Positions 6,679 to 47,051 of a stretch of DNA of 64,000 nucleotides are shown piece after piece. The notes under the pieces were generated by a model. The model had not been told where the DNA came from, made no database searches, and saw nothing but the letters and a program-made list of their open reading frames with translations. Within the stretch, counting starts at the first letter, position 1. The number at the start of each line of letters is the position of its first letter. The stretch comes from a phage. Position numbers and translations under genes: made by a program. The DNA is taken from NCBI GenBank assembly GCA_029742005.1, contig GCA_029742005.1_4113.1; one strand, written 5' to 3'.

Positions 6679-6683
6679 AGAAA

Positions 6684-6718: not shown

Positions 6719-6745
6719 ATTTCATCAACTGATGAGGATAACGAA

Positions 6746-12373: not shown

Positions 12374-12399
12374 AATTCCTCCTTTATTCATTATACTAT

Positions 12400-12437: not shown

Positions 12438-12444
12438 CTATATT

Positions 12445-13164: not shown

Positions 13165-13180
13165 TATAATATATTTAATA

Positions 13181-13211
13181 CAAAAAAGAAAAGCCAGTAC
13201 TCTGTACTGGC
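13181..13211 (-). terminator. terminator hairpin GCCAGTAC-N3-GTACTGGC with T-run
   Basis: Same hairpin as 12419-12437. Confidence 0.55.
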
Positions 13212-13218
13212 TTTTACA

Positions 13219-14409
13219 TTACAATTGTCTAGGTGTATCCAGTACATATCTATTTGTACGAGGACCACCATCATCATGCGTTCCGGTTGAATATATATTT
13301 TTCATATCAGCAGTTAGGAAAGTACGATACGAACCGCGATATATTTTAATTTTATCATACATAGAATATGTTATTCCTGACGGCAATGGACATGCAGTAA
13401 ATTTACCAATGGTAACATTAGAACCAACACCTAATGTACCAGCATAACCACTCGCATTTAAACCAGTTGCATATACACCTGTACTCGTAACTAGTATACT
13501 AGATTGTGATGCATATCCAGTATGGATTGAATAATAAGTTCCTGATGGTAATGTAGTACTATTATTCCCTAATACTGCTAGTGCTGTACTATTCGTAGTG
13601 TTATTACCCCATGCCCCATTATTAGCTAATCCACCAACTAGAAACTGACGTGCTCCTGTATTTGGATTCTCCACTAAAGCACTGACAGCACCAAATGAAC
13701 AAACAGTATATTGTAATGTTTTTGTATATGTGGTACTTGGCTTATACAAAGTATATTCATTAAATGGTGTCCATGTGGTACTAGTACTTATGCCAGATGT
13801 ACTACCACCAATATATAAATTATTTTGTGTATCAAAAAACATTGCACAGTAATTTGTTGACTGTATTTGTGCAATATCTACATCTGGTGTTACCGCTTTA
13901 ACAAATGAACCATCTGATATTTGATAAGTAGTTCCTGTACCATCTGCGAATTGTCTAGCACTATTCCACCCTGTACTCCATATTGTATTATTATCCATTA
14001 AGAAAGTAAACCATGTAGTACCTGCATACATCTGTTTAATTGAAGTACTTGAACTTTGTTTGTACAATTTTTCAATATATTGGTTATAACTTAAAAATGA
14101 TGTAGTACTAGTTTCTAAACCAATATGACTACCATATCCACAATAAAAATAATTTAAGTCCTTATCTTGAACTAACAAAGTTCCTTGTGTCATCCAGCAA
14201 TCTTTGACATTTTCTCTAATTAATGTCCACGACCTTACTGCATTATTATTTCCTCTACCAAACTTCCCAAAACTATTACTGCCTCGTGCGTATAGTTGAC
14301 CGTCGGTATAAAGTACAACAACCTCAGTATCAGTTGGTATTATTTTCTTAATTTGAAGAGGTTCAGGTGTGATATTCCCATAATCAAACATTCTAACAAA
14401 AGGTAACAT
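13219..14409 (-). CDS. RCC1-like repeat protein, MLPF family
   Basis: MLPFVRMFDYGN; RBS AAGGAGGAAAT; repeats such as YARGSNSFGKFGRGNN. Confidence 0.6.
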   Translation of the reverse strand: MLPFVRMFDYGNITPEPLQIKKIIPTDTEVVVLYTDGQLYARGSNSFGKFGRGNNNAVRSWTLIRENVKDCWMTQGTLLVQDKDLNYFYCGYGSHIGLETSTTSFLSYNQYIEKLYKQSSSTSIKQMYAGTTWFTFLMDNNTIWSTGWNSARQFADGTGTTYQISDGSFVKAVTPDVDIAQIQSTNYCAMFFDTQNNLYIGGSTSGISTSTTWTPFNEYTLYKPSTTYTKTLQYTVCSFGAVSALVENPNTGARQFLVGGLANNGAWGNNTTNSTALAVLGNNSTTLPSGTYYSIHTGYASQSSILVTSTGVYATGLNASGYAGTLGVGSNVTIGKFTACPLPSGITYSMYDKIKIYRGSYRTFLTADMKNIYSTGTHDDGGPRTNRYVLDTPRQL

Positions 14410-14478
14410 ATTTCCTCCTTATTCATTATACTATATTTAATACAAATAAGAATGCCAGTATCAAGTACTGGCATTATG

Positions 14479-15588
14479 TTATTTTGGTAAATCAATTTTA
14501 GTAAAGACTGCAACATCCTCGATTGCACCTGGAATGGCGTAATACGATCCAGTACTATACACATCTCCATTTTTGGTTAATATCGATGTCAAACCATCAC
14601 TAAAAAGAACATCCCTAATCTCACTAACTTCAACGGGTAATTGTAAATTGGTAGCACTATATATAGCACCAGTTTGAGAATTGTTTAATCCCAAACCACG
14701 GTTCGCCCCAACACCCTTCTGATATGTACTAGTAATTACCATTTGTGTAGCAGTATTTAAGGCAGGTGAATTCGTCATAAACAACGGAGAACTATTAGGC
14801 AAAGTACTTACAGGAACGGCACGGAATGTAGTCGTGCCTGAACTAAGAAAGTTTGGAGTTTGACCACATACGAAATATGATGTACCATTATAGTAATTGA
14901 ATGCATTACCACCAATGGCTGCATCGATTACACCAGAACTACGCAATCCCCAAGTGTTAATTTGTGTTTGGTTCCCCGTACCATGCTGTCCACTACTATT
15001 CCATCCAGAACTATATAGCTTATTATCTAATGTAAGATACATACTATCATTCGCATTGGTCATTACTTTACGAACGTTCGTAGCACATTGAGTTAATGTG
15101 TAAATTGATGAGGAACCAATACCCAAAGAACCACGATATCCATTATCTCCTGCACCATAGAGTACTGAATTAGTGCTAAGTACAAATATTAAACCATTTG
15201 TACATACAATATTAGCAATTTCACTTACTGGTATAGCATTGGTAAACCAATTAGTCCTTTCAACTAATACAGTACTGTAAGAAGTAGTTGTAGAAGATGA
15301 GAACCAGTACGTTTGACCTGATGTCCATATCGTATTATCATTTTTAATAATAACAAGTGTACGATCACCCACGAAAAAATTAGAAACATCTGCACTTACT
15401 AATATCCATGAAGATACCGTGTTGGTATTACCATTTCCAGATTCACCACCTTGATTTCTACCTATGTAATATAAATCATGTGAATCAGTCAATAAGAATT
15501 GACCTTGTGTAGAAGCACCAACTTTAATTATATTTTTAGGACCAGGTACAATATTTCCGTACTTAACCATTCTTGCAAAAGGTAACAT
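14479..15588 (-). CDS. RCC1-like repeat protein, MLPF family
   Basis: MLPFARMVKYGN start; 369 aa. Confidence 0.6.
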   Translation of the reverse strand: MLPFARMVKYGNIVPGPKNIIKVGASTQGQFLLTDSHDLYYIGRNQGGESGNGNTNTVSSWILVSADVSNFFVGDRTLVIIKNDNTIWTSGQTYWFSSSTTTSYSTVLVERTNWFTNAIPVSEIANIVCTNGLIFVLSTNSVLYGAGDNGYRGSLGIGSSSIYTLTQCATNVRKVMTNANDSMYLTLDNKLYSSGWNSSGQHGTGNQTQINTWGLRSSGVIDAAIGGNAFNYYNGTSYFVCGQTPNFLSSGTTTFRAVPVSTLPNSSPLFMTNSPALNTATQMVITSTYQKGVGANRGLGLNNSQTGAIYSATNLQLPVEVSEIRDVLFSDGLTSILTKNGDVYSTGSYYAIPGAIEDVAVFTKIDLPK

Positions 15589-15598
15589 AATTCTCTCC

Positions 15599-16729
15599 TT
15601 AATTTAATAATGCCCCTGGCAAATCCACTTTGACGAATTGTGCATATGCTGAGGAATTTTGATCAAAGTTTGGTCCCAATCCATAAAATGAGCTAATGCC
15701 GTCTTCATTTGTGTATATGATATAAACGTTCTTTACATCATTTCCGCATATAAATCGAATGTCTTTCGTTTGTGTTCCCGCTGGAACATTACGAAGGTTC
15801 ACAACGCCATTACTTGCATTGTTATCAGCCGACGCAATTGGTAATTGATTTTGACCATATTGACCACGCATATTTTTTGCATCTAAACCAAACACAGTAT
15901 TTGATACCGCACCAACTTTCAAAAATGAACCAAAACTATTATTGAATGACTTTGGAAATGTACCACTATAAACACTTCTCCCATCTGATAATACCGCTGA
16001 ACTGAATTTCCCGTTATTCGATATGGCAAATTCATTGTAAGGAAGTGTACCCATTTTGGTATATACAGAATATGAATTAGTGGAAGTATTATCAATAATC
16101 TTATTACCATTATATCCAATACCATACTGGTATCCGTCTGCATCTTGAACTATACACAAAGGACCACTTGGGGTTTGTGTCAACGAAACAACACGTTCAA
16201 CTTGTATATCACCAAATGTATTTCTTCGCCATGTTCTATCTATTATAGTACTAGTATTACCCAAAGATAATTCCACACTATATAATAGATTGTTTTCAGT
16301 AAAAATGGCAACATAATATGCGTGGTTAATAACTTGCTTCATCCCAGCATCAATAACTTCCTGTGGAATATGATCAGTAACATCCAACCAATCAAGGTTA
16401 GATGATGCAATATCTGGAGTACTGAATTTGTCAAATCTAGTTGAGCCACAAACTAGCACTCTATCATCATTTGTCAAAGCCACTGTGCTAGTCTGCATAT
16501 TAGAACTGAATGATTTAACATTACTAATGTTAGACTTGTACCAACCCTTATCAGCAGCACCCACCGTGAATCCGGTTCCCATTGATCCACTTGTACTTGT
16601 ACCATAAGCCCACATCTCACCACTATATGTTAGTGCCATACAGTGGCTTCCATTTGCTTGGAAATCCTTTATACCAGTGGGAGCAACCACTGTATTCCCA
16701 TAATCAAACATTCTAACAAAAGGTAACAT
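15599..16729 (-). CDS. RCC1-like repeat protein, MLPF family
   Basis: MLPFVRMFDYGN after GGAGAT; track start MEILV is the SD region. Confidence 0.6.
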   Translation of the reverse strand: MLPFVRMFDYGNTVVAPTGIKDFQANGSHCMALTYSGEMWAYGTSTSGSMGTGFTVGAADKGWYKSNISNVKSFSSNMQTSTVALTNDDRVLVCGSTRFDKFSTPDIASSNLDWLDVTDHIPQEVIDAGMKQVINHAYYVAIFTENNLLYSVELSLGNTSTIIDRTWRRNTFGDIQVERVVSLTQTPSGPLCIVQDADGYQYGIGYNGNKIIDNTSTNSYSVYTKMGTLPYNEFAISNNGKFSSAVLSDGRSVYSGTFPKSFNNSFGSFLKVGAVSNTVFGLDAKNMRGQYGQNQLPIASADNNASNGVVNLRNVPAGTQTKDIRFICGNDVKNVYIIYTNEDGISSFYGLGPNFDQNSSAYAQFVKVDLPGALLN

Positions 16730-16804
16730 AACTAAAATCTCCATATAATAATTATAATGTATTTACAAAAAAATACCAGTACATATTTCAGTACTGGCAT
16801 TTTG

Positions 16805-17932
16805 TTAAAATGGTAAATCTATTTGTTTAGTAAATGTCATACTTAGTGGTATTGAACACATTGACGCATTTCTCCCATTTAAATTGGACGGAGGCTGTCC
16901 GTTCATCCATATATTGGTATCGTCGTAAAAAGTACTCCACCACGTAGAACCTTCCGTATGAAGATTAATATTAAAATCAGGGAATTGACATTCTTGAAAA
17001 ACATCAAAAAACGGGATAGATGATACACTACTACCAGTAAATGGAGTGTAGCCTGTTGACATTAATTTATTAGTATCCGAATTTACCAAAAAGATAACAG
17101 AACCAGTATTGAATGGTGAATATTTTGGATACAAATTACTCATATCACCGATAGTGAAGTTGATATCAAATATTTTACTATGCTTACCAGTTCCTGAAAG
17201 TGTAGTACCAGTTACATATATTTTATTATCAGTTGTTCCCATGACAAACCCAATTCCAAATCCCACACAAAATGTTATGTCATATGGTATATTATCAAAG
17301 AGTGGGACAAACGTTGTGGCATCACCAGTAGTAGCTTTTATTTGATAGCTATTATTTGCCCCAGCACCCCAAACAGTACCATTTGATTTCACTTTGAATA
17401 TACTATCTCCTATGTAGTGACCGTATATACTATCAACTTCAGTATCAAGTTTTGTCCATTGTGATACAAAGTTTTTATGCCCTAAACCTAAACAACCATT
17501 GCGGTTTAGTCCCCTGCCGTATAGTGTACCATCATTCATCAGTACAAATGTTGTGTATCCACAAAGCATTTTTTTGATTTGTGTAACATCAATACCAGCA
17601 AAAAAACCACTCCAATCAGTATATCCTTGTTGGATTGCGTTTGATTTGGTGAATGACATAGTTGGTCCTGAACCATATATTTTACCATCTTTTATAATCA
17701 CTGAATAAGAACCTAACCATACATCTTGAACATTCTCACTAATTGTTTTCAATTCACCATATGCAGAGAATGGAGTACTTTGCCCTGCACTATATGATGA
17801 ATCTTCACCGTGTGCATATAATGTTCCATTTTCTGTTAGAATCATTTCCAAATATACACAATTGACAATTTTCTTTATTTTATTAACTTCTATTTTATTT
17901 CCGTACGCTAACATCCTTGCAAAAGGTAACAT
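16805..17932 (-). CDS. RCC1-like repeat protein, MLPF family
   Basis: MLPFARMLAYGN; YGRGLNRNGCLGLGH repeat. Confidence 0.6.
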   Translation of the reverse strand: MLPFARMLAYGNKIEVNKIKKIVNCVYLEMILTENGTLYAHGEDSSYSAGQSTPFSAYGELKTISENVQDVWLGSYSVIIKDGKIYGSGPTMSFTKSNAIQQGYTDWSGFFAGIDVTQIKKMLCGYTTFVLMNDGTLYGRGLNRNGCLGLGHKNFVSQWTKLDTEVDSIYGHYIGDSIFKVKSNGTVWGAGANNSYQIKATTGDATTFVPLFDNIPYDITFCVGFGIGFVMGTTDNKIYVTGTTLSGTGKHSKIFDINFTIGDMSNLYPKYSPFNTGSVIFLVNSDTNKLMSTGYTPFTGSSVSSIPFFDVFQECQFPDFNINLHTEGSTWWSTFYDDTNIWMNGQPPSNLNGRNASMCSIPLSMTFTKQIDLPF

Positions 17933-18007
17933 AACTAAAATCTCCATATAATAATTATAATGTATTTACAAAAAAATACCAGCACATATTTCAGTACTGG
18001 TATAATG

Positions 18008-19180
18008 TTATGGTAAAATAATAGCTTGTAACGAACTCATACCCAATGTTGGAACACTCGCCTGTGGTGCTGGTGCATTCACTTTTGGTGATGAAACCGC
18101 ATAAGTCATTCCTGTACCCAAATCTGGATCAAAAACTACAGAACAATAATCCCCATTGTATATAAGTCCATTAGTATATCCTTGTACACTTTGAATGCAT
18201 TTCGTGAACGTACCAATGTCAGTAGTGGCATTTATTAAGTTCCTCCCACGGTAGCCACATGTGTATATGAAATTATCATCACCTATGTACATACTCGCAT
18301 TCCCAGAAGAACTACATAGATAAGACATATAAGCACGCATGTTTTTAGGAGCAACTGACAATGTACCAGCATAGAATTTATTATTCATACCCGAAATATC
18401 ACCATCACCCAAAGCACCAAAACTCCCCCAACCAGTACCATAATATCTCTTATCACTCAAGAATATAATACAGTTGTTATTACACATCTTGACTTGATAT
18501 ATCAATGAAGGATCAACCCCAGGGAATGATTCAGTGTATGTTAGAACAGCCAGATCAGTACTGGCATTACATTGATGATATGTATTAGTACCAGCGGACA
18601 ATATTGTACCATCAACTAATAGAATCCTCGAAGTGCCAGTACCAGCAATACAAGCAACAGCATTACCTGTATATATTTTTCTGAAAGTAAAGAAACCAAC
18701 AGTCTTACTCCCCTGTCCACTCCAACCAGTATTATCAACACCACATGCCCATACTGAACCATCTTGCATGATCATCATTACACCATAGCGTTCTATCGAA
18801 ATATAGACAATCTTCGTAGTATCAACTGCACTAAATCTAGAAGTTATATCAGTCCAAACCTTTACACTCACCGCCGTCGCACCGAAAGTAGGATCTTCCC
18901 CTGCTATCATTATCCTACCATTGTTAGTCAGATACATTGTCTGACTATAACCAGTACTACAAAACTTAACACTATCAGTCTCTGGAACTTTTAACCACTC
19001 GTTGTAACGTGTTACGTTAGTGTTATTATCTAACTGATAATAGTTATTCATCCCAGATACATATAACACACCATCCTTTATTAAACTATAAGTCGCACTA
19101 TAGTCACTACAGGTATAACGTGTACCCACAGGTCGCTCAACGACGTTCCCATATTCTAACATCCTTACAAAAGGCAACAT
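18008..19180 (-). CDS. RCC1-like repeat protein, MLPF family
   Basis: MLPFVRMLEYGN; no clear SD; start uncertain. Confidence 0.5.
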   Translation of the reverse strand: MLPFVRMLEYGNVVERPVGTRYTCSDYSATYSLIKDGVLYVSGMNNYYQLDNNTNVTRYNEWLKVPETDSVKFCSTGYSQTMYLTNNGRIMIAGEDPTFGATAVSVKVWTDITSRFSAVDTTKIVYISIERYGVMMIMQDGSVWACGVDNTGWSGQGSKTVGFFTFRKIYTGNAVACIAGTGTSRILLVDGTILSAGTNTYHQCNASTDLAVLTYTESFPGVDPSLIYQVKMCNNNCIIFLSDKRYYGTGWGSFGALGDGDISGMNNKFYAGTLSVAPKNMRAYMSYLCSSSGNASMYIGDDNFIYTCGYRGRNLINATTDIGTFTKCIQSVQGYTNGLIYNGDYCSVVFDPDLGTGMTYAVSSPKVNAPAPQASVPTLGMSSLQAIILP

Positions 19181-19221
19181 AACTAAATACCAGAACATAT
19201 TTCAGTACTGGTATCGTAGCG

Positions 19222-20364
19222 TTAAAATGGCATCTTAACCTCTTTATATACTAATATATCACCGGATAAACCAGGAAACGCAGAACCATTACCACATGCA
19301 TATATAGTACTGTCATTCCACGCCGCTTGATGGTAATTACCTATAGTACATTTATAATTCGATAAATCAGTCACACCAGGTGTTAGTACATAATATACTG
19401 GTCCACTAGGTAAATTAAAATCAAATCTACCAAAGTAGTTCAAACCAGATGAATAGGACTTGTCATTAGCAAATATTACAGTACCATCTTCTGTAAAAGA
19501 ACTGTGAGAAATGTCTTTGAGATTGTTCACAACACCAGACGGTATTGATGTATTCAACGTAAAGGACGTCAATGGTGCTGCACTCGGTGTGTTGTTCGCC
19601 GTGTAACCATAATATGCATAACCAGCTACATATACACTCGAATCTGAACAAAATAAAAATGCACTCCTATAACCCAACCTAATACTCTCTATAGTCTTAC
19701 TAAAAGTAACTTTAGTAAAGGTAGGAACTAAACCACTATATCCTACCCCACATGTACCAAAATCATTCTTCCCAGTACTGTACAATTCGTTATTATTTGT
19801 AAGGTAAAATGACGCAGCAGCACCGCTATCTAAAGTACTGTAAACGTCTTTTACATTACTCGCAATCAATTTAAATGCACTCAATACGGTAGCCGAACCA
19901 TTGTTAGACAGCGTTGTTGAATCCGTGCCTTGTCCTATTGTATATAAATCTCCAGTACTAGTCAAAACAAATATACCATTAGTCGCCATAACAATTCTGT
20001 CATTCTTTAAATTAAATGAACTAAAAAGTGTACTTATATCAGTAAAGGTAGTATAACGCCCACTCTGCCCTATACTCGATAAATTCCCACTCAAATAAAC
20101 CTTATTATCATTACCAACAGCTACATAACAACCCCACCCAGCATATATCTGATCAATGCCTTGTATCGGTATTTGTAACCATTCACTACCAGTTACCGAA
20201 GCAGTACTTCCAGTTCCAAGTTCACCAGAGTTATTAGCTCCGAATACATATAAATTCCCACTATCCGATAAAACAACTGTATTACCAACTCCAGTTTTTA
20301 TATCCTTGATACCATTCTTAGGAGCAACATTCCCATAATCAAACATTCTAACAAAAGGTAACAT
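19222..20364 (-). CDS. RCC1-like repeat protein, MLPF family
   Basis: MLPFVRMFDYGN; RBS GGAGGGAAAT. Confidence 0.6.
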   Translation of the reverse strand: MLPFVRMFDYGNVAPKNGIKDIKTGVGNTVVLSDSGNLYVFGANNSGELGTGSTASVTGSEWLQIPIQGIDQIYAGWGCYVAVGNDNKVYLSGNLSSIGQSGRYTTFTDISTLFSSFNLKNDRIVMATNGIFVLTSTGDLYTIGQGTDSTTLSNNGSATVLSAFKLIASNVKDVYSTLDSGAAASFYLTNNNELYSTGKNDFGTCGVGYSGLVPTFTKVTFSKTIESIRLGYRSAFLFCSDSSVYVAGYAYYGYTANNTPSAAPLTSFTLNTSIPSGVVNNLKDISHSSFTEDGTVIFANDKSYSSGLNYFGRFDFNLPSGPVYYVLTPGVTDLSNYKCTIGNYHQAAWNDSTIYACGNGSAFPGLSGDILVYKEVKMPF

Positions 20365-20436
20365 ATTTCCCTCCTTTATTCATTATACTATATTTAATCA
20401 AAAATAAAAGCCAGTACTTGAGTACTGGCATAGTAT

Positions 20437-21564
20437 TCAAAAAGGTAAATCAATTTGCTTAGTAATAATAGTATCTAACGGTATTGAACACAATGAGAAA
20501 TTCTTTCCACCCGTATTTTCAGGATTATATCCATTCATCCATACATTATTACCTTCGTAAAATGTATTCCAGTATAAAGCCCCACTATATCGTGTATTCG
20601 AATTGAACGATGGAAAGTTGAATTCTTGGAATGATGTAAAATATGGAATGGAACTTGAACTACTTCCCGTAAATGGGGTATACCCAGTTGCTATTAGTTT
20701 GTTTGTATCTGCATTAATTAAAAATACAACACTAGTCGAATAGTCCAACGAATCAGGATGATATATATTACTCATATCACCTATAGTAAAACCAACATCA
20801 AAAACTTTACTATGTGCACCACTACCAGCAAAAGTAGTTCCAGTTGCATATATTTTATTATCAGATGTTATCATTACAAAACCAACACCAGAAACAAAAC
20901 TGCATTTTATATCATAAGATATATCATCAAACAACGGAACAAATGTGGTTGCATCACCCGATGTTGCTTTAACTTGAAAGCTGTTATTTGAACCTGAACC
21001 ATATACAGTTCCATCGTTTTTAATCTTAAACAATGTATCGCCAAGGTAACCGCCAAATATATTATCCACATTAGTGTCAAGTACAGTCCACGCTGAAACA
21101 TAATTTTTATGTCCTAAACCTAATGCACCACTTCGATTCCATCCTCTTCCATAAAGTGTTCCGTCTTTCATTAATATAAATGCTGTATAACCACATAACA
21201 TTTTTTTAATTTGGGTAACATCTATACCAGTGAAATACACAGCCCAGTCAGTATATCCTTGTTGGAAAGTATCAGAATTCGTGAATGCATATGTTGGACC
21301 TGAACCATATATTTTATCACCTTTAATAACAACGGAAAACAATCCTAACCATAAGTCATCAACTTCAGTTGTGATTTGTTGAACTGCTCCTAACGATACA
21401 AACTTTGTACTTAAACCCGCATTATAGTTTGAATCTTCACCGTGTGCATATACAGTGCCATCTTGCATTAGAAACATTTCAAGAGTGCCACTAACAACAC
21501 TTTTCTTTATATTATTAACTTCGATTATATTCCCATAATCAAACATTCTAACAAAAGGTAACAT
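20437..21564 (-). CDS. RCC1-like repeat protein, MLPF family
   Basis: MLPFVRMFDYGN; YGRGWNRSGALGLGH repeat; closest paralog of 16805-17932. Confidence 0.6.
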   Translation of the reverse strand: MLPFVRMFDYGNIIEVNNIKKSVVSGTLEMFLMQDGTVYAHGEDSNYNAGLSTKFVSLGAVQQITTEVDDLWLGLFSVVIKGDKIYGSGPTYAFTNSDTFQQGYTDWAVYFTGIDVTQIKKMLCGYTAFILMKDGTLYGRGWNRSGALGLGHKNYVSAWTVLDTNVDNIFGGYLGDTLFKIKNDGTVYGSGSNNSFQVKATSGDATTFVPLFDDISYDIKCSFVSGVGFVMITSDNKIYATGTTFAGSGAHSKVFDVGFTIGDMSNIYHPDSLDYSTSVVFLINADTNKLIATGYTPFTGSSSSSIPYFTSFQEFNFPSFNSNTRYSGALYWNTFYEGNNVWMNGYNPENTGGKNFSLCSIPLDTIITKQIDLPF

Positions 21565-21636
21565 AATTCCCTCCTTTATTCATTATACTTTATTTAATAC
21601 AAATAAGAATTCCTGTATCGAGTACTGGCATTCAAT

Positions 21637-22785
21637 TTATTGTAAAAAGGACATATCTACTTCTGTATAACTAAGAATGTTTTGACCAGCAATTCCACCC
21701 ATTACTACTATTGCATACCCACAATAATATAATTTCCCAGTGTCCGTAAGTATAAGTGAACCAGAAGGTGTTCTTACCAAATTACACGAACTATTAAAAG
21801 AAGTATACGAAGGAGTATAGGAGTACTGATTAATATTATTACCAACACCTAATTGACCACCCCTATTCGAACCAGATGCATAAAGTACTTCATCTGCTTT
21901 GACAATATGTGATGCCATGTTAGCAACACATGCATATACACCATATACCCCTGTACTCAATAATGTAGGAGTCTTGTATTGAATATCAGTACTAGTAGAT
22001 GTTCCACCTGTGCCAAATTCATTACCATATTGTGCTCCGTACTGCTTCCCACATGCGTACAAATTATTATCCGATTTGATAAAAAATGTACTCTGATAAC
22101 TTACATCAAAATCTATAACATCCGAAGAAATCATCGTTACCCCAGTAATCGAAGTTTGATTACCAGTACCCAACTGGTAGTAATAGTTAAAACCACAACC
22201 CCATAAAGTATTATCTTCTTTTAGGTATATGTTACCAACTGCCTTTTTAACCGAAGTTATAGTATCTACCCTTTTGAATGTGTTAAAAGAATTAATGTTT
22301 GTACCATCACCAAATGATGATAGGTTCGAGTTATTGTTAACTCCACAACAATACAACGTACCATCGTTTGTTATCAAATTCACCTTCATATCATTAAAAC
22401 TACTCATGTATTTTATATCAGAAACATTAATACCACCTGATGTTATCCATGTAGTACAGTCCGTCCATAACGTCTTCCTATCAGTTACCCCAGTAAATGC
22501 CTTCGTGTTACCAGTGATAAACACTTTACCAGTACCCTTTTCTTCATACAATTGACAATCACTACTGTTATCTTCCAATAAAACCCTCTGTACATTCTCT
22601 GCACAAAGAATAAATTTACTCGATGCTACACCTGTTCCAGTACCCCAATTCGTCGCAGAAGATGCATACAACTTATGTGTTAGTGTATCATGCAAATACA
22701 TAGAACCACTAGAATATATTTTAAAACGCCCAGAGTTGGTAGGTGCTTCATTCCCATAATCAAACATTCTAACAAAAGGTAACAT
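21637..22785 (-). CDS. RCC1-like repeat protein, MLPF family
   Basis: MLPFVRMFDYGN after AAAGGAGGAAAT; track start MNKGGN covers the SD. Confidence 0.6.
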   Translation of the reverse strand: MLPFVRMFDYGNEAPTNSGRFKIYSSGSMYLHDTLTHKLYASSATNWGTGTGVASSKFILCAENVQRVLLEDNSSDCQLYEEKGTGKVFITGNTKAFTGVTDRKTLWTDCTTWITSGGINVSDIKYMSSFNDMKVNLITNDGTLYCCGVNNNSNLSSFGDGTNINSFNTFKRVDTITSVKKAVGNIYLKEDNTLWGCGFNYYYQLGTGNQTSITGVTMISSDVIDFDVSYQSTFFIKSDNNLYACGKQYGAQYGNEFGTGGTSTSTDIQYKTPTLLSTGVYGVYACVANMASHIVKADEVLYASGSNRGGQLGVGNNINQYSYTPSYTSFNSSCNLVRTPSGSLILTDTGKLYYCGYAIVVMGGIAGQNILSYTEVDMSFLQ

Positions 22786-22827
22786 ATTTCCTCCTTTATT
22801 CATTATATCATATTTACCCCATAACCC

Positions 22828-22856
22828 TTGACATCCTTTCAGTACTGGTGTACTAT
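22828..22856 (+). promoter_or_regulatory. promoter TTGACA-17-TACTAT heading the 22.9-26.9 kb array
   Basis: Consensus -35, 17-nt spacer containing CAGTACTG. Confidence 0.5.
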
Positions 22857-27889: not shown

Positions 27890-28060
27890 CCTGGATGGAT
27901 TTTGGACGTAGATATGTCTAGCCCTCCAGAAGTCTGGAAGTAAAGATGGCTATCCATCTAGACGGCTAAACGGCTAGATTTCTGGATGGCTGGATGGCTA
28001 GACGTTTGGACGGCTAAACGGCTAGATGGTTACACGTCTGGAAGTATAGACGGCTAAATC
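27890..28060. repeat. iteron-like direct repeat cluster
   Basis: GACGGCTAAACGGCTAGAT at 27961 and 28009, partial at 28049; TCTGGAAGTA twice; palindrome AGATGGCTATCCATCT. Confidence 0.6.
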
Positions 28061-29680: not shown

Positions 29681-29947
29681 ATGAATATTAAGTATTTTGC
29701 GACGCGTGAACAAGCTCGGATCGCCGCACGCCAGGACGGGGCAACGTTTAAAGATATGGGCGTACAATCGGAACGTGGTAAACGTTGGGCCATTATAAAG
29801 CGTAGTACCGCCAGATCATTACAGTACTGGCTATCTGCTTTAAAGCGTCCTGATAGTGTATCGCGTCGCGTGGTAGAAATAAAGCACGACCGCAAGGGCA
29901 ACCGCGTTACTGTGTACAGTACTAAAAAGATAGCAGTACTTGAATAA
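29681..29947 (+). CDS. hypothetical protein, KYFATREQAR family
   Basis: Paralog of 40678-41073 (shared ..FATREQARI.AR..G.TFKDMG.. and ..HDRKGNRVTVYS..). Confidence 0.55.
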   Translation: MNIKYFATREQARIAARQDGATFKDMGVQSERGKRWAIIKRSTARSLQYWLSALKRPDSVSRRVVEIKHDRKGNRVTVYSTKKIAVLE

Positions 29948-30131
29948 AAGTACTTGCATACTATGTTTAAAGGCGTATAATGTTTTACATCAGGACGGGG
30001 AACGAAATAAGTAACTTCCCGTTAAGTAGCCCAGGAGTAAGGCACACGAAAAACTCCCCTGATAAAATAGTTTGACAAATGTTTTTAAAAGCGTATAATA
30101 CTTACATCAACTACTGAATGAGGGTTACAAA
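29946..30131 (+). repeat. dual-promoter repeat unit, copy 1
   Basis: Near-identical to 39417-39601; promoters at 29954-29981 and 30072-30099. Confidence 0.6.
29988..30070 (+). ncRNA. candidate small RNA between tandem promoters
   Basis: Hairpin ACGGGGAA..CTTCCCCGT; no ATG-initiated ORF; conserved in second copy. Confidence 0.3.
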
Positions 30132-30743
30132 ATGAAAACTATCACTACTACTACTTTCGTTATGGCTTTTTCTGAATTGAACGCAGAACAACAAACGTCA
30201 GCTATCGAACTGGTTCGGGATCGGGAACGTTCAAGCGGTGATGATTTCTTTTCTGAGTCAGTGATCGAGTACTATAAAGAAACAGTACTACCAGAATATG
30301 GAATTGATGACGCTGATTTGCAATTCAGTGGTTTTTGGTCGCAGGGTGACGGTGCATCAATCAGTACTGACCACGTTGACGCAGTGAAGTTTTTACGCAA
30401 GATTAAAGCATTAACTAAGTATCGTTCTATCCGTCACCTGCTGAATGAAGATGATTTGGCGATGAGTGTAAAGCGTTCTCACTCCCACTACTCGCATGAA
30501 AACACTGTAAGCGGGTACATTGAATCGGGGTACACTGATTTAACCGCAAAACAAGAAACGTTAGTTAATGAGCTTGAGGAACTACTCACTGAAACTATTC
30601 GTGAATTATCCCGCAAGTTGTACCGTGATTTAGAGAATGCATATGAGGATCAATTCACTACTGAAAACATTACGGCACTGATTGAGGGTAACGAATATCA
30701 ATTCAATGTTATTGATGGCGTAGTAGAATCTATCGAATATTAA
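30132..30743 (+). CDS. hypothetical protein
   Basis: 203 aa after promoter 30072-30099. Confidence 0.6.
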   Translation: MKTITTTTFVMAFSELNAEQQTSAIELVRDRERSSGDDFFSESVIEYYKETVLPEYGIDDADLQFSGFWSQGDGASISTDHVDAVKFLRKIKALTKYRSIRHLLNEDDLAMSVKRSHSHYSHENTVSGYIESGYTDLTAKQETLVNELEELLTETIRELSRKLYRDLENAYEDQFTTENITALIEGNEYQFNVIDGVVESIEY

Positions 30744-32833: not shown

Positions 32834-32856
32834 AGCCCACCCGGTGGGCTTTTTTG
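32834..32856 (+). terminator. rho-independent terminator AGCCCACC-CGGTGGGCT + T-run
   Basis: Perfect stem + TTTTTTG. Confidence 0.7.
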
Positions 32857-33059
32857 TTTTTGTAGTATCGTAGTACTGAGATACTTTGAAAATAGTTTTA
32901 AAAAATAGTTGACATTACCGCAGAAAAGCGTAGAATGTATTACATCAAGACGGGGAGCACTAAGTAGACCGCCAGTAAGTCGAACGAAAAACTGGACACG
33001 TCGAGAAAACTTTGATACACTAATAAACGTAAACTAAACTTTAATTGAGGATTTATAAA

Positions 33060-33542
33060 ATGGCTAATGTAAAATCATTCATCAAAGCACTGGTAGCAAA
33101 TGAAACTAACGTCGCGGCAGAGATCCTGGCTGATCTGGATAACGATACCATGAAAGCGGTACGCAATAATTTTAACATCGCTTATAGTACTGCGAAAGAA
33201 CTACAAGCAAATAAAGCGGCAGAAATTGAAGCGGCAAAGGCGGCCCGTGAAGCAGAACTACAAGCAACAATTGAAAGTATCCAGGCGGCAGTAGTTGGAT
33301 TGGATCTGGAAGTAGTTACAGAGATGGCACAAAAAGCCCTGGCGGTTAAGTATGGGGAAGATAAGCCGGAATCTAAGCCTAAAAAATGGATTCAAAAACG
33401 TGTAGCGGTAGTACTGGACAACGGGGAAGAATATCTGATTCCGGTGCGTGGTAACTGCATTGCGGTAGTACTGGATGCGATTAACTCCAGTGGTATGACT
33501 CGCGAGGAATGGATCGAAGCTCATCGCAAAGTGGAAGCATAA
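33060..33542 (+). CDS. hypothetical Ala-rich protein
   Basis: RBS GAGGA; long 5' UTR after promoter TTGACA..TAGAAT near 32909. Confidence 0.55.
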   Translation: MANVKSFIKALVANETNVAAEILADLDNDTMKAVRNNFNIAYSTAKELQANKAAEIEAAKAAREAELQATIESIQAAVVGLDLEVVTEMAQKALAVKYGEDKPESKPKKWIQKRVAVVLDNGEEYLIPVRGNCIAVVLDAINSSGMTREEWIEAHRKVEA

Positions 33543-33563: not shown

Positions 33564-33590
33564 AGCCCACCTTAAACGGTGGGCTTTTTT
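33564..33590 (+). terminator. rho-independent terminator AGCCCACC-TTAAAC-GGTGGGCT + T-run
   Basis: Stem + TTTTTTG. Confidence 0.7.
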
Positions 33591-36136: not shown

Positions 36137-36280
36137 ATGAATCCAACAGGTTTAAACTATAAAAGTTGTTCGGCGTTTACGAAAGCAAATAAAGCGAATG
36201 CACGTAAAGCGAAAGTACAGGAATACATCAAGCAAGGCATGACGCGAAAGGCGGCGATTCTAAAAGCTAAAAATAAATGA
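36137..36280 (+). CDS. small basic protein (47 aa)
   Basis: Starts right after previous stop; Lys/Ala-rich; terminator follows. Confidence 0.35.
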   Translation: MNPTGLNYKSCSAFTKANKANARKAKVQEYIKQGMTRKAAILKAKNK

Positions 36281-36285
36281 AAAAA

Positions 36286-36319
36286 GTGGTTGACTCCGGT
36301 CAGCCATTTTGCTATTATA
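36286..36319 (+). terminator. terminator-promoter composite (hairpin with TTGACT, then TATTAT)
   Basis: TGGTTGACTCCGGTCAGCCA hairpin; -35 36290-36295; -10 36314-36319. Confidence 0.55.
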
Positions 36320-36490
36320 TATTCATTGAGAGATAGCTCACTAGCCCACAGGGTGCATAAGTGTATCTATTATATAAGTATTGAGTACTGAAAACTATTT
36401 TTAAAAAGTACTTGCAAACTATCTCAATTGGCGTATAATGTTTTACATCGCAAGGGGAAACGGTTTCCCCTGGTAATAAGGAAACGAATC

Positions 36491-39132: not shown

Positions 39133-39278
39133 AAGAATTCTTATTCGAAGTAGTGTTCCAGGGCGTAGGAAGTAACCAACTGATTCGATCAAGTGGTTAC
39201 AATGTTAACCAGGCATGGAATAACATTAAACAAATGTACCCGAACGCTATCACCTATCGCAACCCAAAACAAGTTTAA
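39129..39278 (+). CDS. small hypothetical protein (49 aa)
   Basis: ATGA overlap; terminator-promoter follows. Confidence 0.4.
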   Translation: MKEFLFEVVFQGVGSNQLIRSSGYNVNQAWNNIKQMYPNAITYRNPKQV

Positions 39279-39292
39279 AAAGAATTGAAAAA

Positions 39293-39325
39293 GGGATTGA
39301 CTCCGGTCAGTCCCTTTGCTATTAT
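39293..39325 (+). terminator. terminator-promoter composite
   Basis: GGGATTGACTCCGGTCAGTCCC hairpin; TTGACT-17-TATTAT. Confidence 0.6.
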
Positions 39326-39416
39326 ATATTCATTGAAACAATCTAGCCCACAGGGTGCATAAATGTATCTATTGTTTGCTGGTGGCTAGTACTATCAAGT
39401 ACTGAAAACTATTTTT

Positions 39417-39601
39417 AAAAAGTACTTGCAAAGTATCACGATAAGCGTATAATGTTTTACATCAGGACGGGGAACGAAACAAGTAACTCCCCGTTAAGTA
39501 GTCCAGGAGTAAGACATACGAAAACCTCCCCTGATAAAATAGTTTGACAATAGAAATTAAACGAGTATAATACTTACATCAACCACAAAGAGGAATACAA
39601 A
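39417..39601 (+). repeat. dual-promoter repeat unit, copy 2
   Basis: Near-identical to 29946-30131. Confidence 0.6.
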
Positions 39602-39802
39602 ATGAAACATTTTACTTTCGGTGTAGTAGGCTTTACAGTATCCAGCGGCGTTTATAAATCAGAACGCGGTGCTAAAAATGCAGCAAGTCGGGCGTATGGT
39701 TCACAGCGTGACTTACAGGTCGGTTATATTAGTAACATTAATAACATGTTTATTCCTGTTTCACAGCGTAAAGCGGGTAACATGAAATGGGAAACAATTT
39801 GA
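39602..39802 (+). CDS. hypothetical protein
   Basis: RBS AAGAGGAA. Confidence 0.5.
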   Translation: MKHFTFGVVGFTVSSGVYKSERGAKNAASRAYGSQRDLQVGYISNINNMFIPVSQRKAGNMKWETI

Positions 39803-41997: not shown

Positions 41998-42582
41998 ATG
42001 CGTAACTATACTAAATTCATCCGTTCACTTCATGCAATGGAAACCAACAAAGAGATCCTTTCAGCTTGTCGGTTAGCTGGACTGGAGATCGTCGGTGCGG
42101 GTTCTTCCCGTATTGTATTCGCTTTAAATGATCGGTTAGTGATTAAGGTCGCGAATTGTGATGCGGGTGTAGAACAAAATGAAACTGAATGTAAGGTATG
42201 GAATTTTTTAGATTATGACCGTCCGCACCTTAAACAGTTCTTTGCCAAGGTGCATATGCATTTATGCGATCCTGATAATCTGTTTATTGTTATGGATCGT
42301 TTGAGTACTGCAAGCAAAGGCAGTGTAAAGCATGTAAACGCGTGCAATGAGTTAAAGTACAATATTAAACGTAATACGGTAGAACGCCAACACCATTTCG
42401 CTGATGCTCTCAATCACGTTGATGATACATTATCCACACTAACGATAAGAGATATCAGAAAACAGAATATCGGCCAGGATCGCAACGGCTTGATTAAAGT
42501 ACTTGATTACGGTTTAACCCGCAATATCTGGAATCAGTACTATAAAAAACGTGATGTTAACGCGATAACTATAACACGATAA
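41998..42582 (+). CDS. protein kinase-like protein
   Basis: GAGSSRIVF (Gly loop), VIKVA (Lys), IRDIRKQN (catalytic loop), KVLDYG (DFG-like); RBS AAGGAG. Confidence 0.5.
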   Translation: MRNYTKFIRSLHAMETNKEILSACRLAGLEIVGAGSSRIVFALNDRLVIKVANCDAGVEQNETECKVWNFLDYDRPHLKQFFAKVHMHLCDPDNLFIVMDRLSTASKGSVKHVNACNELKYNIKRNTVERQHHFADALNHVDDTLSTLTIRDIRKQNIGQDRNGLIKVLDYGLTRNIWNQYYKKRDVNAITITR

Positions 42583-42596
42583 AAAAGATTAAAAAA

Positions 42597-42629
42597 GGGA
42601 TTGACTCCAGTCAGTCCCTTTGCTATTAT
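42597..42629 (+). terminator. terminator-promoter composite
   Basis: GGGATTGACTCCAGTCAGTCCC hairpin; TTGACT-17-TATTAT. Confidence 0.6.
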
Positions 42630-42803
42630 ATATTCATTGAGAGATAACTCACTGACCCATAGGGTGCGGAAGTGTATCTATTATATAAGTATTCAGTACT
42701 GAAAACTATTTGATAAAAAGTACTTGCAAACTATCTCAAAGAGCGTATAATGTTTTATATCGAGAGGGGGAAATGGTTTCCCCTCAAGTCCAGGAGATAC
42801 ACC

Positions 42804-43983: not shown

Positions 43984-44000
43984 CAAAAAAGAATAAAAAA

Positions 44001-44033
44001 GGGATTGACTCCGGTCAGTCCCTTTGCTATTAT
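44001..44033 (+). terminator. terminator-promoter composite
   Basis: GGGATTGACTCCGGTCAGTCCC hairpin; TTGACT-17-TATTAT. Confidence 0.6.
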
Positions 44034-44228
44034 ATACGCATAGACAAAAACTAGCCCACTGGGTGCATAAGTGTATCCAAAATATATAGTTAATAACGGT
44101 GAGTAACTATCTGCTGGTGGAGTGAAAACTATTAATAAAAAAAGTATTGACAAAGTATATCAGTACTGCGATAATGTATCTCGTAGGGCGGCAATGGTGC
44201 GACGGCCCACAAAGTTAGGAGATTCAAA

Positions 44229-45561: not shown

Positions 45562-45759
45562 ATGCGTATTTTAACTGAAGAAGAGCACAACCACACACTC
45601 ATATCCAACATGGCATATATCCTACATATGTCACATATCCGTGGTATTGCATATAAGCGTGAATTGGTTATGAAACTTTTCATAGGAACTAACTATCAAG
45701 AAAAGTATATCGAACTATACTTACAAGAATTACGAAGGGACATAAAAGGAAGACGATGA
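45562..45759 (+). CDS. small protein, LGTNYQ-motif family C
   Basis: RBS AAAGGAG; ..FIGTNYQEKY.. Confidence 0.55.
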   Translation: MRILTEEEHNHTLISNMAYILHMSHIRGIAYKRELVMKLFIGTNYQEKYIELYLQELRRDIKGRR

Positions 45760-45956
45760 AAATGCGTATTTTAAATAAAGAAGATTATCAAGAACTGTTA
45801 TGTAAAAACATGGTAAAGATTTATAACACAGACACAAACTTAGAACGAATTGAGTTATACCTTTTGATTACATTGGGAACAAGCTATCAGAGAAGATGGG
45901 TGATTCAATATATGGATGCATTGAAAAATGAAATATTGTCCACGAGGAAACAATGA
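45756..45956 (+). CDS. small protein, family C
   Basis: ATGA overlap; ..LGTSYQRR.. Confidence 0.5.
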   Translation: MKMRILNKEDYQELLCKNMVKIYNTDTNLERIELYLLITLGTSYQRRWVIQYMDALKNEILSTRKQ

Positions 45957-46162
45957 AAACTATAACACGAACCCAATCATACGGTCTTATCTTGAGATAC
46001 ATGGACTTAATGTTGGATATCAGCAAAGACCTTCCTAAAACTGCAATTGAAGTTACAAGAGCAGAGATCCGCATGTTGGCTGTACTGAACACAAACCATC
46101 AGGAAGAGTATGTTGATGATTGGATTAATTTTTTAATTCAAGATATAAAGAGTAAACTATGA
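45953..46162 (+). CDS. small protein, family C
   Basis: ATGA overlap; ..LNTNHQEEY.. Confidence 0.5.
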   Translation: MKTITRTQSYGLILRYMDLMLDISKDLPKTAIEVTRAEIRMLAVLNTNHQEEYVDDWINFLIQDIKSKL

Positions 46163-46371
46163 TTTTTTTAACACCAGAAGAATATAAGATACGTTTTGTT
46201 TCTGTCCAGAATAAAATCTTAATTATATACAATTCAAATGCAGACCTTAACTTATCAAGGGTATTAGAAAAAGATTTACTTATGGGTGCATTTTTGGATA
46301 CAGACTTTCAGGAGTATTATGTAGGGGAATACTTAATTGCACTCAAGAATTATATTAAGAGTAAACTATGA
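46159..46371 (+). CDS. small protein, family C
   Basis: ATGA overlap; ..LDTDFQEYY.. Confidence 0.5.
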   Translation: MIFLTPEEYKIRFVSVQNKILIIYNSNADLNLSRVLEKDLLMGAFLDTDFQEYYVGEYLIALKNYIKSKL

Positions 46372-46583
46372 ATATCATTGCAAACTCAAATCAATATACC
46401 GAACGCGTCGCTGCAAGACAACTTGAAATTCTCATAGTATACGAAGAGACTTCTGATTTAAACTTAGCCGAGGTATTGGAAAATGATATACTATTGGGTG
46501 CATTCCTCGGCACAGACTATCAGGAGCACTTCTTGAATGAGTATATAATTGCACTCCAGAAATACATTAAGAGCAAACTATGA
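46368..46583 (+). CDS. small protein, family C
   Basis: ATGA overlap; ..LGTDYQEHF.. Confidence 0.5.
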   Translation: MNIIANSNQYTERVAARQLEILIVYEETSDLNLAEVLENDILLGAFLGTDYQEHFLNEYIIALQKYIKSKL

Positions 46584-46816
46584 AACATTTAAGTAACTCC
46601 GAGAAGAATAAAATTATCGTTGCTGCAATAAACAAATATTTTACACTTCCTCACACAGAAGGTTTATGTGTAAGAGAACACAGGATAAACACCACCGATA
46701 TACGCATGATGGCTGTACTGGGGACTAACTTTCAGAAGGAGTATGTTGATGCACACATTACCGCACTGATGAACTTTATAATGGGAAAGGTAAATGAAAC
46801 ACTTAACACTAGATGA
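46580..46816 (+). CDS. small protein, family C
   Basis: ATGA overlap; ..LGTNFQKEY.. Confidence 0.5.
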   Translation: MKHLSNSEKNKIIVAAINKYFTLPHTEGLCVREHRINTTDIRMMAVLGTNFQKEYVDAHITALMNFIMGKVNETLNTR

Positions 46817-47051
46817 ATATGAAACTATAGTCCGTAAACTAACCCCTATAGCAAGGATAGTCTACGATGACCCCAGCCTTACATGGAACCAAATGCGAGC
46901 TAAAGTTAATGAGCTATGGTTGCTGTACTTTATGGGAACGCAATATCAAGATAAGTTTTGCACAGAATATGTCGAACAATTAATGAATGTTATACAGGAT
47001 AAACTAGATGATTATTGGCTCGCAAAACATGAAGACTTTATCAGGAGTTGA
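46794..47051 (+). CDS. small protein, family C
   Basis: ..MGTQYQDKF.. Confidence 0.5.
   Translation: MKHLTLDEYETIVRKLTPIARIVYDDPSLTWNQMRAKVNELWLLYFMGTQYQDKFCTEYVEQLMNVIQDKLDDYWLAKHEDFIRS

Follow-up and report, generated by a model that had tools for sequence, protein, structure and literature searches.

The put RNAs of phage HK022 are structured elements of about 70 nucleotides (nt) that follow early promoters, occur in two copies per genome and contain a base triplex (PMC9378689). A second kind of element tied to phage promoters, the PeSL of T4-type phages, ends with a Shine-Dalgarno sequence and the start codon of an open reading frame (ORF), and its stem-loop has been described as a terminator or attenuator (PMC2839356). 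The locus discussed here recalls both. It is a duplicated promoter segment in a 64,000-nt stretch of phage DNA (assembly GCA_029742005.1, contig GCA_029742005.1_4113.1), called the window below, in which all coordinates are 1-based on the given strand. A preliminary description had noted two near-identical copies of this segment, 29946-30131 and 39417-39601 (copies A and B), each with a first promoter, a hairpin-bearing stretch without an ATG-initiated ORF and a second promoter, and had proposed that they specify a small regulatory RNA or a structured leader. The analysis reported here indicates that the segment probably encodes a functional structured RNA, and neither a protein nor a DNA-level site, with relatives in the early leaders of T7 and of several groups of large phages.

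The conserved core reads, from 5' to 3', UAAGUA, GNC (the 5' strand of stem S1), 1-3 nt, a 5' strand of stem S2 of 4-5 nt, (A)UAA, GN'C (the 3' strand of S1), RYACGAAAAA and the 3' strand of S2. Because GNC pairs with GN'C inside the loop closed by S2, the core is an H-type pseudoknot. In an alignment of 27 distinct sequences (alignment A5), standard pairs fill 96.8% of the cells of the named structure, compared with 15-38% when the partners are slid by 1-3 columns, and the covariation score is 0.49, compared with at most 0.10 for the slid partners. None of the column shuffles attained the observed pairing or covariation score, and a set of 23 sequences agrees; the copies from CMSTMSU, a record marked unverified and containing many indels, were excluded from the covariation sets. 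The middle pair of S1 is A-U in 18 of the 27 sequences, U-A in six and C-G in three, with zero mismatches, and every one of these variants is present in podophage and myophage lineages alike. In S2, three pairs are altered on both sides, giving the versions GGAG/CUCC, GGUG/CACC, CCAG/CUGG, GCCUG/CAGGC, GCUUG/CAAGC and ACUUG/CAAGU. The covariance analysis across related phages that had been suggested as a check therefore identifies the segment, by its covariation, as a conserved structured RNA.

The strand that is under constraint can be read from the same data. G.U pairs arise both in S2 and in the hairpin 5' of the core, and since they would be C.A mismatches on the opposite strand, the constraint acts on the RNA read from the + strand; all copies lie downstream of same-strand promoters. 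A DNA-level role of the A-rich stretch as an UP element for the next promoter was rejected, because ACGAAAAA is conserved where no promoter follows (copy C, introduced below, and the T7-like locus L035) and because the G.U and compensatory changes indicate RNA. RNAalifold recovers the helix that closes the unit, the hairpin and S2, and the single-sequence fold z-scores are only -1.9 and -2.3, so that the structural case rests on the comparative evidence and not on folding energy. About 20 unpaired bases are invariant across the phage families, which suggests that they form a binding surface.

The hairpin to which the preliminary description had drawn attention (ACGGGGA...UYCCCGU) is indeed present in copies A and B, but it is the least conserved part of the segment, the constrained core being the pseudoknot just 3' of it. 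A hairpin stands directly 5' of UAAGUAG in most family members, with at least nine different stem sequences (ACGGGGA/UCCCCGU, CCGG/CCGG, UCCAG/CUGGA, GCCAC/GUGGU, CGGG/CCCG, GGGA/UCCC and others), and it is optional, being absent from copy C and from L035. As a side observation, GUCAAC recurs in T7-like early leaders (e.g., L018:170-200 and L019:1960-2080), and one instance is a conserved hairpin loop, RGUCAA, 5' of the motif.

A covariance model built from the core (model R1) finds exactly three matches in the window, at 53-55 bits, and the next best site reaches 8 bits. Two of the matches are the duplicated copies and the third, copy C, is a more diverged core at 32959-32999, which was first detected by a pattern scan at 32961-32990. 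The element is thus not confined to two copies, as had been supposed, and beyond the window its family extends to at least 504 phage records and to several myophage lineages. The UAAGUA, UAA and RYACGAAAA blocks occur in the correct order and spacing in all three window copies, and pairing is kept by compensatory change, with GCC/GGC and GGAG/CUCC in copy A, GUC/GAC and GGAG/CUCC in copy B, and GAC/GUC and CCAG/CUGG in copy C.

The duplication itself is real, as copies A and B align without gaps from the first promoter through the second -10 box. They are strongly alike, with 159 of 187 positions identical (85%), for which "near-identical" is a somewhat generous wording. The transcribed core is closer (71 of 77 positions, or 92%, between 29987-30063 and 39459-39535), and identity drops to about 50% in the 150 bp on either side of the duplicated segment. 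A 42-nt core probe, allowing at most three mismatches, matches only copies A and B in the window, where shuffles expect no match. The layout of a promoter, a segment lacking a conserved gene and a second consensus promoter is borne out in both copies, and the promoter scan returns both second promoters as perfect; they begin 14 nt past the RNA module. The start site of copy A is likely A29987 or A29989, within the conserved ACATCA. The whole unit is closed, in window-type copies, by an invariant 6-bp helix, AUCAGG/CCUGAU. Six differences separate the two cores: two belong to a compensatory S1 pair (30030 C/U with 30042 G/A), one turns a C-G pair of the hairpin into U.G, and three lie in loops, so that three of the six keep pairing. 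The genes downstream of copies A and B are mutually unrelated and have no known function. The coordinates of all these features are collected in Table 1.

Table 1. Features of the three copies of the RNA motif and of their surroundings in the window
Feature	Position	Strand	Details
Copy A, first promoter	29954..29981	+	-35 TTGCAT 29954-29959, 16-nt spacer, -10 TATAAT 29976-29981; read directly
Copy A, RNA module	29989..30063	+	Covariance model match 30021-30061, 54.4 bits, E 1e-11; covariation; nested consensus fold
Copy A, closing helix	29989-29994 / 30058-30063		AUCAGG / CCUGAU
Copy A, hairpin	29995-30001 / 30016-30022		ACGGGGA / UUCCCGU
Copy A, unpaired block	30023-30028		UAAGUA
Copy A, pseudoknot stem S1	30029-30031 / 30041-30043		GCC / GGC
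Copy A, stem S2	30034-30037 / 30054-30057		GGAG / CUCC
Copy A, A-rich loop	30044-30053		ACACGAAAAA
Copy A, second promoter	30072..30099	+	TTGACA-16-TATAAT, 12/12 matches; feeds 203-aa gene
Gene downstream of copy A	30132..30743	+	203 aa, phrog_5162; unlike the genes after the other copies
Terminator, strong	32834-32850		Directly ahead of copy C promoter
Copy C, promoter	32909..32936	+	TTGACA-16-TAGAAT
Copy C, RNA module	32949..33002	+	Covariance model match 32959-32999, 53.4 bits, E 2e-11; without upstream hairpin
Copy C, enclosing helix	32949-32952 / 32999-33002		GACG / CGUC
Copy C, unpaired block	32961-32966		UAAGUA
Copy C, S1	32967-32969 / 32979-32981		GAC / GUC
Copy C, S2	32972-32975 / 32992-32995		CCAG / CUGG
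Gene downstream of copy C	33060..33542	+	160 aa; followed by terminator 33564-33585
Copy B, first promoter	39426..39453	+	TTGCAA-16-TATAAT
Copy B, RNA module	39461..39535	+	Layout of copy A at +9472; covariance model match 39493-39533, 54.6 bits
Copy B, closing helix	39461-39466 / 39530-39535		
Copy B, hairpin	39467-39473 / 39488-39494		ACGGGGA / UCCCCGU
Copy B, S1	39501-39503 / 39513-39515		GUC / GAC
Copy B, S2	39506-39509 / 39526-39529		GGAG / CUCC
Copy B, second promoter	39544..39571	+	Perfect TTGACA-16-TATAAT; feeds 66-aa gene 39602-39802

The statement that the segment holds no ATG-initiated ORF is not literally true, as an ORF of 31 amino acids (aa) runs through both copies (29980..30075 and 39452..39547). 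That a 31-aa peptide is the product under selection might be argued from its presence in both copies and from three of the six copy differences being synonymous in its frame. Its ATG, however, consists of the last two bases of the -10 hexamer plus a G, upstream of the likely start site, and no Shine-Dalgarno sequence precedes it. Furthermore, the frame is broken and the RNA pairing kept in Outra (a 4-nt deletion), in muut and A7_1 (1-nt changes) and in 121Q_b and EJP2_c (a 2-nt deletion), so that a coding role is hardly credible.

The distribution of the motif places it in several unrelated groups of phages. The window belongs to a jumbo coliphage, virulent and of the PBECO4/121Q group (Asteriusvirus), and the 301 bases around the duplicated segment are 94-99% identical to 41 phage records. 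When the 88-nt core was used in a sensitive DNA search, 45 phage records matched at 88-100% identity, and the set includes Justusliebigvirus (outra, muut and EmilieFrey) and Vequintavirinae (A73, W70, A7_1 and A5-4), which are unrelated to Asteriusvirus. In these latter phages the core is about 90% identical and directly follows the -10 box, the neighboring small genes differ from those of the window, and conservation runs from ATCAGG, at about the start site, to CCTGATAAAA, with different promoters on both sides. Phage EJP2 has three copies, one of them diverged, in which GGAG...CUCC has become GGUG...CACC, a compensatory change.

A weak match (E 0.07) to Kayfunavirus and Klebsiella podophages proved genuine. 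Between two host-type early promoters, these phages carry ...CCGGUUAAGUAGUC AGCCUG UAAGAC AUACGAAAAA CAGGC..., in which the unpaired blocks agree with those of the window and the helix strands are wholly different yet complementary. T7 itself has CCGG-GGUCAA-CCGG A UAAGUAGAC AGCCUG AUAAGUC GCACGAAAAA CAGGU, running directly into the -35 box of A2; it occupies nt 549-590, between the annotated start sites of A1 (498) and A2 (626), that is, +52 to +93 of the A1 transcript. The covariance model scores it at 65 bits, and record NC_001604 annotates only promoters there. In IMG/VR a pattern scan matched 32 loci, which belong almost entirely to T7-like genomes of 37-45 kb, the others including 121Q and another phage of 366 kb, and the covariance model finds one match at each T7-like locus and three each in 121Q and EJP2. 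Among the T7-like leaders the motif is conserved despite widely differing upstream parts, and a boxA of the rrn type occurs further along the same leader in all of these loci, 17 nt past the motif in L035.

The T7-type sequence is present in at least 504 phage records, at one place in each, from phages of Escherichia, Klebsiella, Salmonella, Yersinia, Enterobacter, Shigella, Citrobacter, Serratia, Pantoea and Aeromonas. Sequences of the copy C type occur in Alcyoneusvirus (Muenster), the Salmonella phages Munch and 7t3, Erwinia phage Hallingskeid, the Vequintavirinae phage LTH01 and Pantoea phage LIMEzero, where the motif lies between two annotated host promoters. Two further observations concern this last group. 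In Muenster (L053:5409-5510) a consensus promoter about 45 nt past the motif is followed by a degenerate stretch (...GUAGACCGGAAUCACGAAAAAC...), below the model threshold, which may be a decayed second motif copy. In Munch (L054:935-951) the sequence AAAAATAAATGCTTGAC matches the UP-element/-35 region of Escherichia coli rrnB P2 at 17 of 17 positions, suggesting a phage promoter that copies an rRNA promoter.

Outside these phages the motif was not met. Neither 5,426 complete E. coli genomes nor a scan of 185,579 bacterial and archaeal genomes contained it, apart, in the latter, from a T7-like contaminant in a metagenome-assembled genome and one spurious, non-pairing Pseudomonas match. A metagenome scan for window-type copies gave two Asteriusvirus-like contigs and three spurious matches, and strict window-type patterns found only 121Q in IMG/VR. 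The metagenome contigs L010 and L012 were set aside as chance pattern matches unrelated to the motif; these two unrelated contigs both carry GACCGATACTACAGASTAGTGTGTCGATATCAGGACGGGG. Rfam 15 gave no match in the whole window at gathering thresholds, only a chance SodC thermometer match downstream of the motif in 29900-30200 at E<=10, and no match at E<=1 at the T7, Kayfunavirus and L035 loci; a search for transfer RNAs and transfer-messenger RNAs returned nothing. In the listed GenBank records, what is annotated beneath the matches, if anything, is a hypothetical protein or a terminal repeat; none of them marks an RNA or a regulatory feature there. A literature search by topic and by sequence string found no description of the motif, with subscription journals thinly covered, so that an older description is possible. 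The motif appears, therefore, to be undescribed as a sequence and structure family, although there are precedents for structured RNAs that open the early transcripts of phages.

The A/B form, a promoter plus the RNA with the next gene's own promoter behind it, acts like a portable cassette that lacks an ORF and has apparently passed from one coliphage to another, unrelated one. A different origin for it would be an empty promoter cassette, functionless, whose intervening gene was deleted and whose remnant was duplicated and recently passed between phages. The surrounding array is indeed built of PeSL-like cassettes, which are known to recombine and to delete genes (PMC2839356), the segment retains an AGGAG resembling a Shine-Dalgarno sequence, and TGATAAAATAGTTTGACA also ends a real gene at 39800. 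Against this stand the T7-like podophages, in which the same core has entirely different stems with the pairing preserved, and the compensatory substitutions between the copies; in addition, AGGAG forms one side of a helix that covaries (GGAG/CUCC, GGUG/CACC, CCAG/CUGG, GCCUG/CAGGC). An empty cassette is accordingly very improbable.

In the window, all three copies are part of an array of small genes on the + strand, at about 28.8-44.6 kb, with a repeated promoter cassette ahead of each gene. The cassettes consist, in order, of an AT-rich stretch, AAAGTACTTGCA or TTGACA, 16 nt, TATAAT, the start-site motif ACATCA, a GGGGAGAAATGGTTCTCCCC-type stem-loop, a Shine-Dalgarno sequence and ATG. Repeat families D1-D6, with 11-17 copies apiece, span the same 28.8-44.6 kb, and the promoter scan is concordant with them. 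The first promoters of copies A and B are members of family D1, which has at least 17 similar promoter cassettes within the window, and three of the roughly 30 early promoters in the array carry the motif.

Because window position 27142 aligns to position 1 of phage vB_Ec-M-J, which has an annotated direct terminal repeat at 1-21525, the array is probably a terminal repeat and hence the first DNA to reach the cell; position 27142 may correspond to the physical left end of the genome. Copies A, C and B lie about 2.9, 5.8 and 12.3 kb, respectively, from this presumed end. The Muenster copy is located inside the annotated terminal repeat of that phage, as is the match in fENko-Kae01, and in all four phages whose ends are annotated or known (T7, vB_Ec-M-J, Muenster and fENko-Kae01) the motif is found within a few kb of the left end.

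Several other repeats of the window were recorded along the way. A degenerate tandem array with units of 8, 16 and 24 nt (GACGGCTAAACGGCTAGATGGCT...) lies about 0.8 kb inside position 27142, at 27957-28056. A second repeated non-coding element occurs in the early array at 36270-36362, 39277-39369, 42581-42673 and 43985-44077, with related sequences at 360-439, 1446-1525, 6088-6167 and 6671-6750. It comprises a terminator-like hairpin, AAAGGGATTGACTCCGGTCAGTCCCTTT, that holds a -35 box TTGACT, followed by a -10 box TATTAT (the hexamers of E. coli rrnB P2) and by a conserved ORF-less stretch of 45-60 nt (ATTCATTGAGAGATAACTCACTAGCCCACAGGGTGCATAAGTGTATC), and it may be another short early RNA. Such a promoter inside a terminator hairpin precedes copy B, which accordingly has three tandem same-strand promoters between 39297 and 39571, with -35 boxes starting at 39297, 39426 and 39544. 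Their spacing, 129 and 118 bp, is near that of T7 A1, A2 and A3 (128 and 124 bp), and the arrangement also resembles rrn P1/P2. On the minus strand, 12300-22850 is an array of paralogous genes of about 1.1-1.2 kb with repeated intergenic units (D7, D9-D11, D14 and D18), and the matching region of 121Q is annotated with RCC1-like "DNA condensation" proteins. Other families of diverged direct repeats, spaced by 230-1800 bp (D13) or by about 360-480 bp (D4, D15 and D20), lie in 45679-50370 and 60322-63533 and resemble tandem paralogous small genes.

Copy C bears on whether the motif is a leader or a separate small RNA, the two possibilities left by the preliminary description. It lies in the 5' untranslated region (UTR) of the gene that starts at 33060, in the order of module, about 60 nt, Shine-Dalgarno sequence, gene and strong terminator. 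As this copy is nothing more than a gene's 5' UTR, the term "structured leader" suits the motif better than "small RNA gene" does. The sequence defines no discrete small RNA of 80-100 nt, and no terminator follows the copies: the promoter and terminator scan found no terminator-like site between any of the three copies and the next gene. Processing could nevertheless release an RNA from the leader. The 160-aa protein encoded downstream of copy C is 37% identical to gp011 of Klebsiella phage Muenster, which matches the H-NS N-terminal domain PF22470 at 25.5 bits. A Pfam search of the 160-aa window protein itself gave no match, and it is a possible phage H-NS-like protein. A motif copy also precedes the homologous H-NS-N-terminal-like gene in Muenster and in Munch. 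The 203-aa protein downstream of copy A is 45% identical to Muenster gp006, which has no motif ahead of it.

As to what the RNA does, the hairpin plus pseudoknot is probably a functional early RNA, and the reading that we tentatively place first, at well short of an even chance and by analogy with put, is that the nascent RNA acts cotranscriptionally on the host elongation complex. The host RNA polymerase would make the RNA from strong sigma70-type early promoters, with the motif within the first 20-95 nt of the transcript, at the genome end that probably enters the cell first. The pseudoknot would fold as it emerges from the polymerase, and its conserved single-stranded bases would dock on some host component that Enterobacterales have in common. 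Our best guess for this target is the transcribing elongation complex, with less pausing, Rho action or termination across the long early region as the result, as with the HK022 put RNA; the options include put-like anti-pausing or antitermination and, for long untranslated leaders, protection against Rho. A host component is the most likely partner because the motif is common to unrelated phages that share nothing but their hosts. Action in cis is ranked first because no 3'-end signal is present, because the motif stands at the very front of the early transcripts and because an rrn-type boxA always accompanies it in the T7-like leaders. The T7 A1 leader is cut from the 0.3 messenger RNA (mRNA) by RNase III. 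Since RNase III separates the leader in this way, a simple mRNA-stabilizer role is unlikely in T7, where the RNA would have to act during transcription or as a released RNA.

Several points weigh against cotranscriptional action. In vitro, the early terminator TE efficiently stops T7 transcripts whichever of the three A promoters they start from, which argues against strong put-like suppression of intrinsic terminators, and the motif has no sequence or model similarity to put. With at most one mismatch, boxA (GCUCUUUAACAA or close) is absent from the window, and at two mismatches it is absent from the + strand of the early array, so that a Nus/boxA mechanism cannot be general. Modified polymerases would issue from only one of three T7 early promoters and from three of about 30 array promoters, and copy C is followed by a single gene and then by a strong terminator. 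That the motif has a promoter of its own and the next gene a new one is no less compatible with an independent RNA gene than with a leader. Finally, the covariation comes from related sequences, with a modest number of independent events; the jumbo-phage start sites are predicted, and every copy is known from sequence alone. What we infer is the partner and the effect of the motif and, for the jumbo phage, its transcription.

Nearly as likely as action in cis is a decoy or sponge RNA that works in trans, made in bulk from very strong promoters before any phage protein. Whether still within a leader or after processing, it would sequester or inhibit a host protein found throughout Enterobacterales, for example a ribonuclease, an RNA chaperone, Rho or an immune sensor. 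Such a decoy best explains why, in copies A and B, in the T7-likes and in LIMEzero, the motif is driven by a promoter of its own while another promoter behind it serves the next gene, and why the cassette has moved among unrelated phages with different neighbor genes. The three copies lie in a region that is a terminal repeat in relatives, so that their dosage would double; the conserved unpaired bases hint at a binding surface, and the RNase III cut of the T7 A1 leader would release the RNA. The absence of a host copy means that the RNA is not a sequence-level mimic of a host operator. On the other hand, in the jumbo phage the 3' end is marked neither by a terminator nor by a recognizable processing site, and copy C looks like any other 5' UTR. 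The sequence suggests no partner, and neither a CsrA-type GGA loop nor an extended Hfq ARN tract is conserved.

Two further roles take the position of the motif in the transcript as their starting point. The module lies 2-3 nt past the predicted start, where ordinary array cassettes have the simple GGGGAGAAATGGTTCTCCCC stem-loop, and it might therefore determine RNA stability or processing, either by hindering 5'-end-dependent RNase E attack or scanning or by capping upstream transcripts against 3' exonucleases. This is unlikely: a plain hairpin would suffice for it and the roughly 20 invariant unpaired bases would be left unexplained, the T7 motif stands at +52 to +93 behind other hairpins in a leader that RNase III removes, and the second promoter yields the same mRNA without the motif. 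A device for the traffic between tandem promoters, which would prevent backtracking or speed sigma70 release and so cut interference between close early promoters, is quite improbable. It would account for the distance from the 3' strand of S2 to the next -35 box, which is 2-3 nt in most T7-likes, 14 nt for both A and B and, in Kayfunavirus, LIMEzero, Muenster and L046, about 17-45 nt, and for copy B promoter spacing close to that of T7; yet copy C and L035 lack a strong promoter after the motif, and the conserved loop sequence would be unnecessary for such a role. As a separate matter, sequestering of the Shine-Dalgarno sequence by GUAGYCC was considered and rejected, since its complementarity to that of the next gene, which the longer folds display, is present in A, B and 121Q and not in EJP2_c, muut and A73.

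Put more broadly, and with a likelihood that we would keep distinctly in the minority, the motif may be a portable, protein-independent takeover or anti-defense RNA, the first functional product of infection in T7-likes and several large myophages, made by the host polymerase from the first DNA to enter and binding either a universal enterobacterial machine (RNA polymerase, Rho or the degradosome) or an immune sensor. With a promoter of its own, an ORF-less cassette of this kind could hop between unrelated phages. If the host elongation complex is modified, the motif would be a second put-like class of RNA, structurally unrelated to put and far more widespread; a decoy, by contrast, would let the phage strike first at its host without any protein. 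Few phages have been studied as thoroughly as T7, and transcription biochemistry routinely employs its A1 promoter and leader; a conserved pseudoknot at +52 to +93 of that leader has apparently been overlooked. The motif is common to T7, to jumbo phages of 350 kb and to rV5- and phAPEC8-type phages, with a covariation that only RNA pairing explains. It also indicates that promoter-flanked cassettes in the variable regions of phages can carry RNA genes as well as small ORFs, and RNA-bearing cassettes matter for annotating the "empty" intergenic stretches of large phages.

Among the described systems, the cis-acting antiterminator RNAs putL and putR resemble the motif in being structured RNAs just downstream of phage early promoters transcribed by the host, in more than one copy per genome and with no protein factor alongside. 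The base triplex of put also has a possible counterpart, as the A-rich loop of the motif is placed to cross a helix. However, put consists of two long stem-loops (PMC9378689), whereas the motif combines a short hairpin with an H-type pseudoknot, and a search of the complete HK022 genome with model R1 gave only noise (the best site has 11 bits and lies in a tail gene); an HK022 stretch inspected for putL proved to be coding. Moreover, put is confined to lambdoid phages, whereas the motif occurs in virulent T7-like phages and large myophages, where an effect on polymerase would be assigned by analogy.

The PeSL elements share with this locus an array of repeated sigma70-like promoters, AT-rich in their upstream part and accompanied by a GGGG...CCCC stem-loop, ahead of small genes whose function is unknown. 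Promoters of this type border the RNA cassette on both sides, and it has apparently moved between phages, as was proposed for PeSL-flanked genes (PMC2839356). The cassette differs in bearing a conserved pseudoknotted RNA, with no conserved ORF between the first promoter of copies A and B and the next one, and in belonging to an Asteriusvirus-like jumbo phage, not a T4-type phage.

Like lambda nut and the rrn antiterminator, the motif is a leader RNA element after early or rrn promoters. Its S2 hairpin has GAAAAA beside the 3' strand, as the rrnB boxB loop does, and the lambda boxB loop likewise carries GAAAAA in that position; the T7-like leaders also hold a boxA of the rrn type. In contrast to these elements, the loop of the motif is far larger and pseudoknotted, and the phages that carry it are not known to encode an N-like protein. 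Because boxA is lacking in the window, the motif there does not qualify as a nut or rrn antiterminator. The rrnB leader matches the model only over the 10 nt AGACGAAAAA, at 5.6 bits, and shares boxA with the T7-likes.

The closest relative is the T7 A1 leader, a member of the same RNA family with the same S1/S2 pairing and the same conserved loops. It has one copy, located behind other hairpins and abutting the -35 box of A2, whereas the window has three copies, of which A and B possess an extra closing helix and a larger hairpin.

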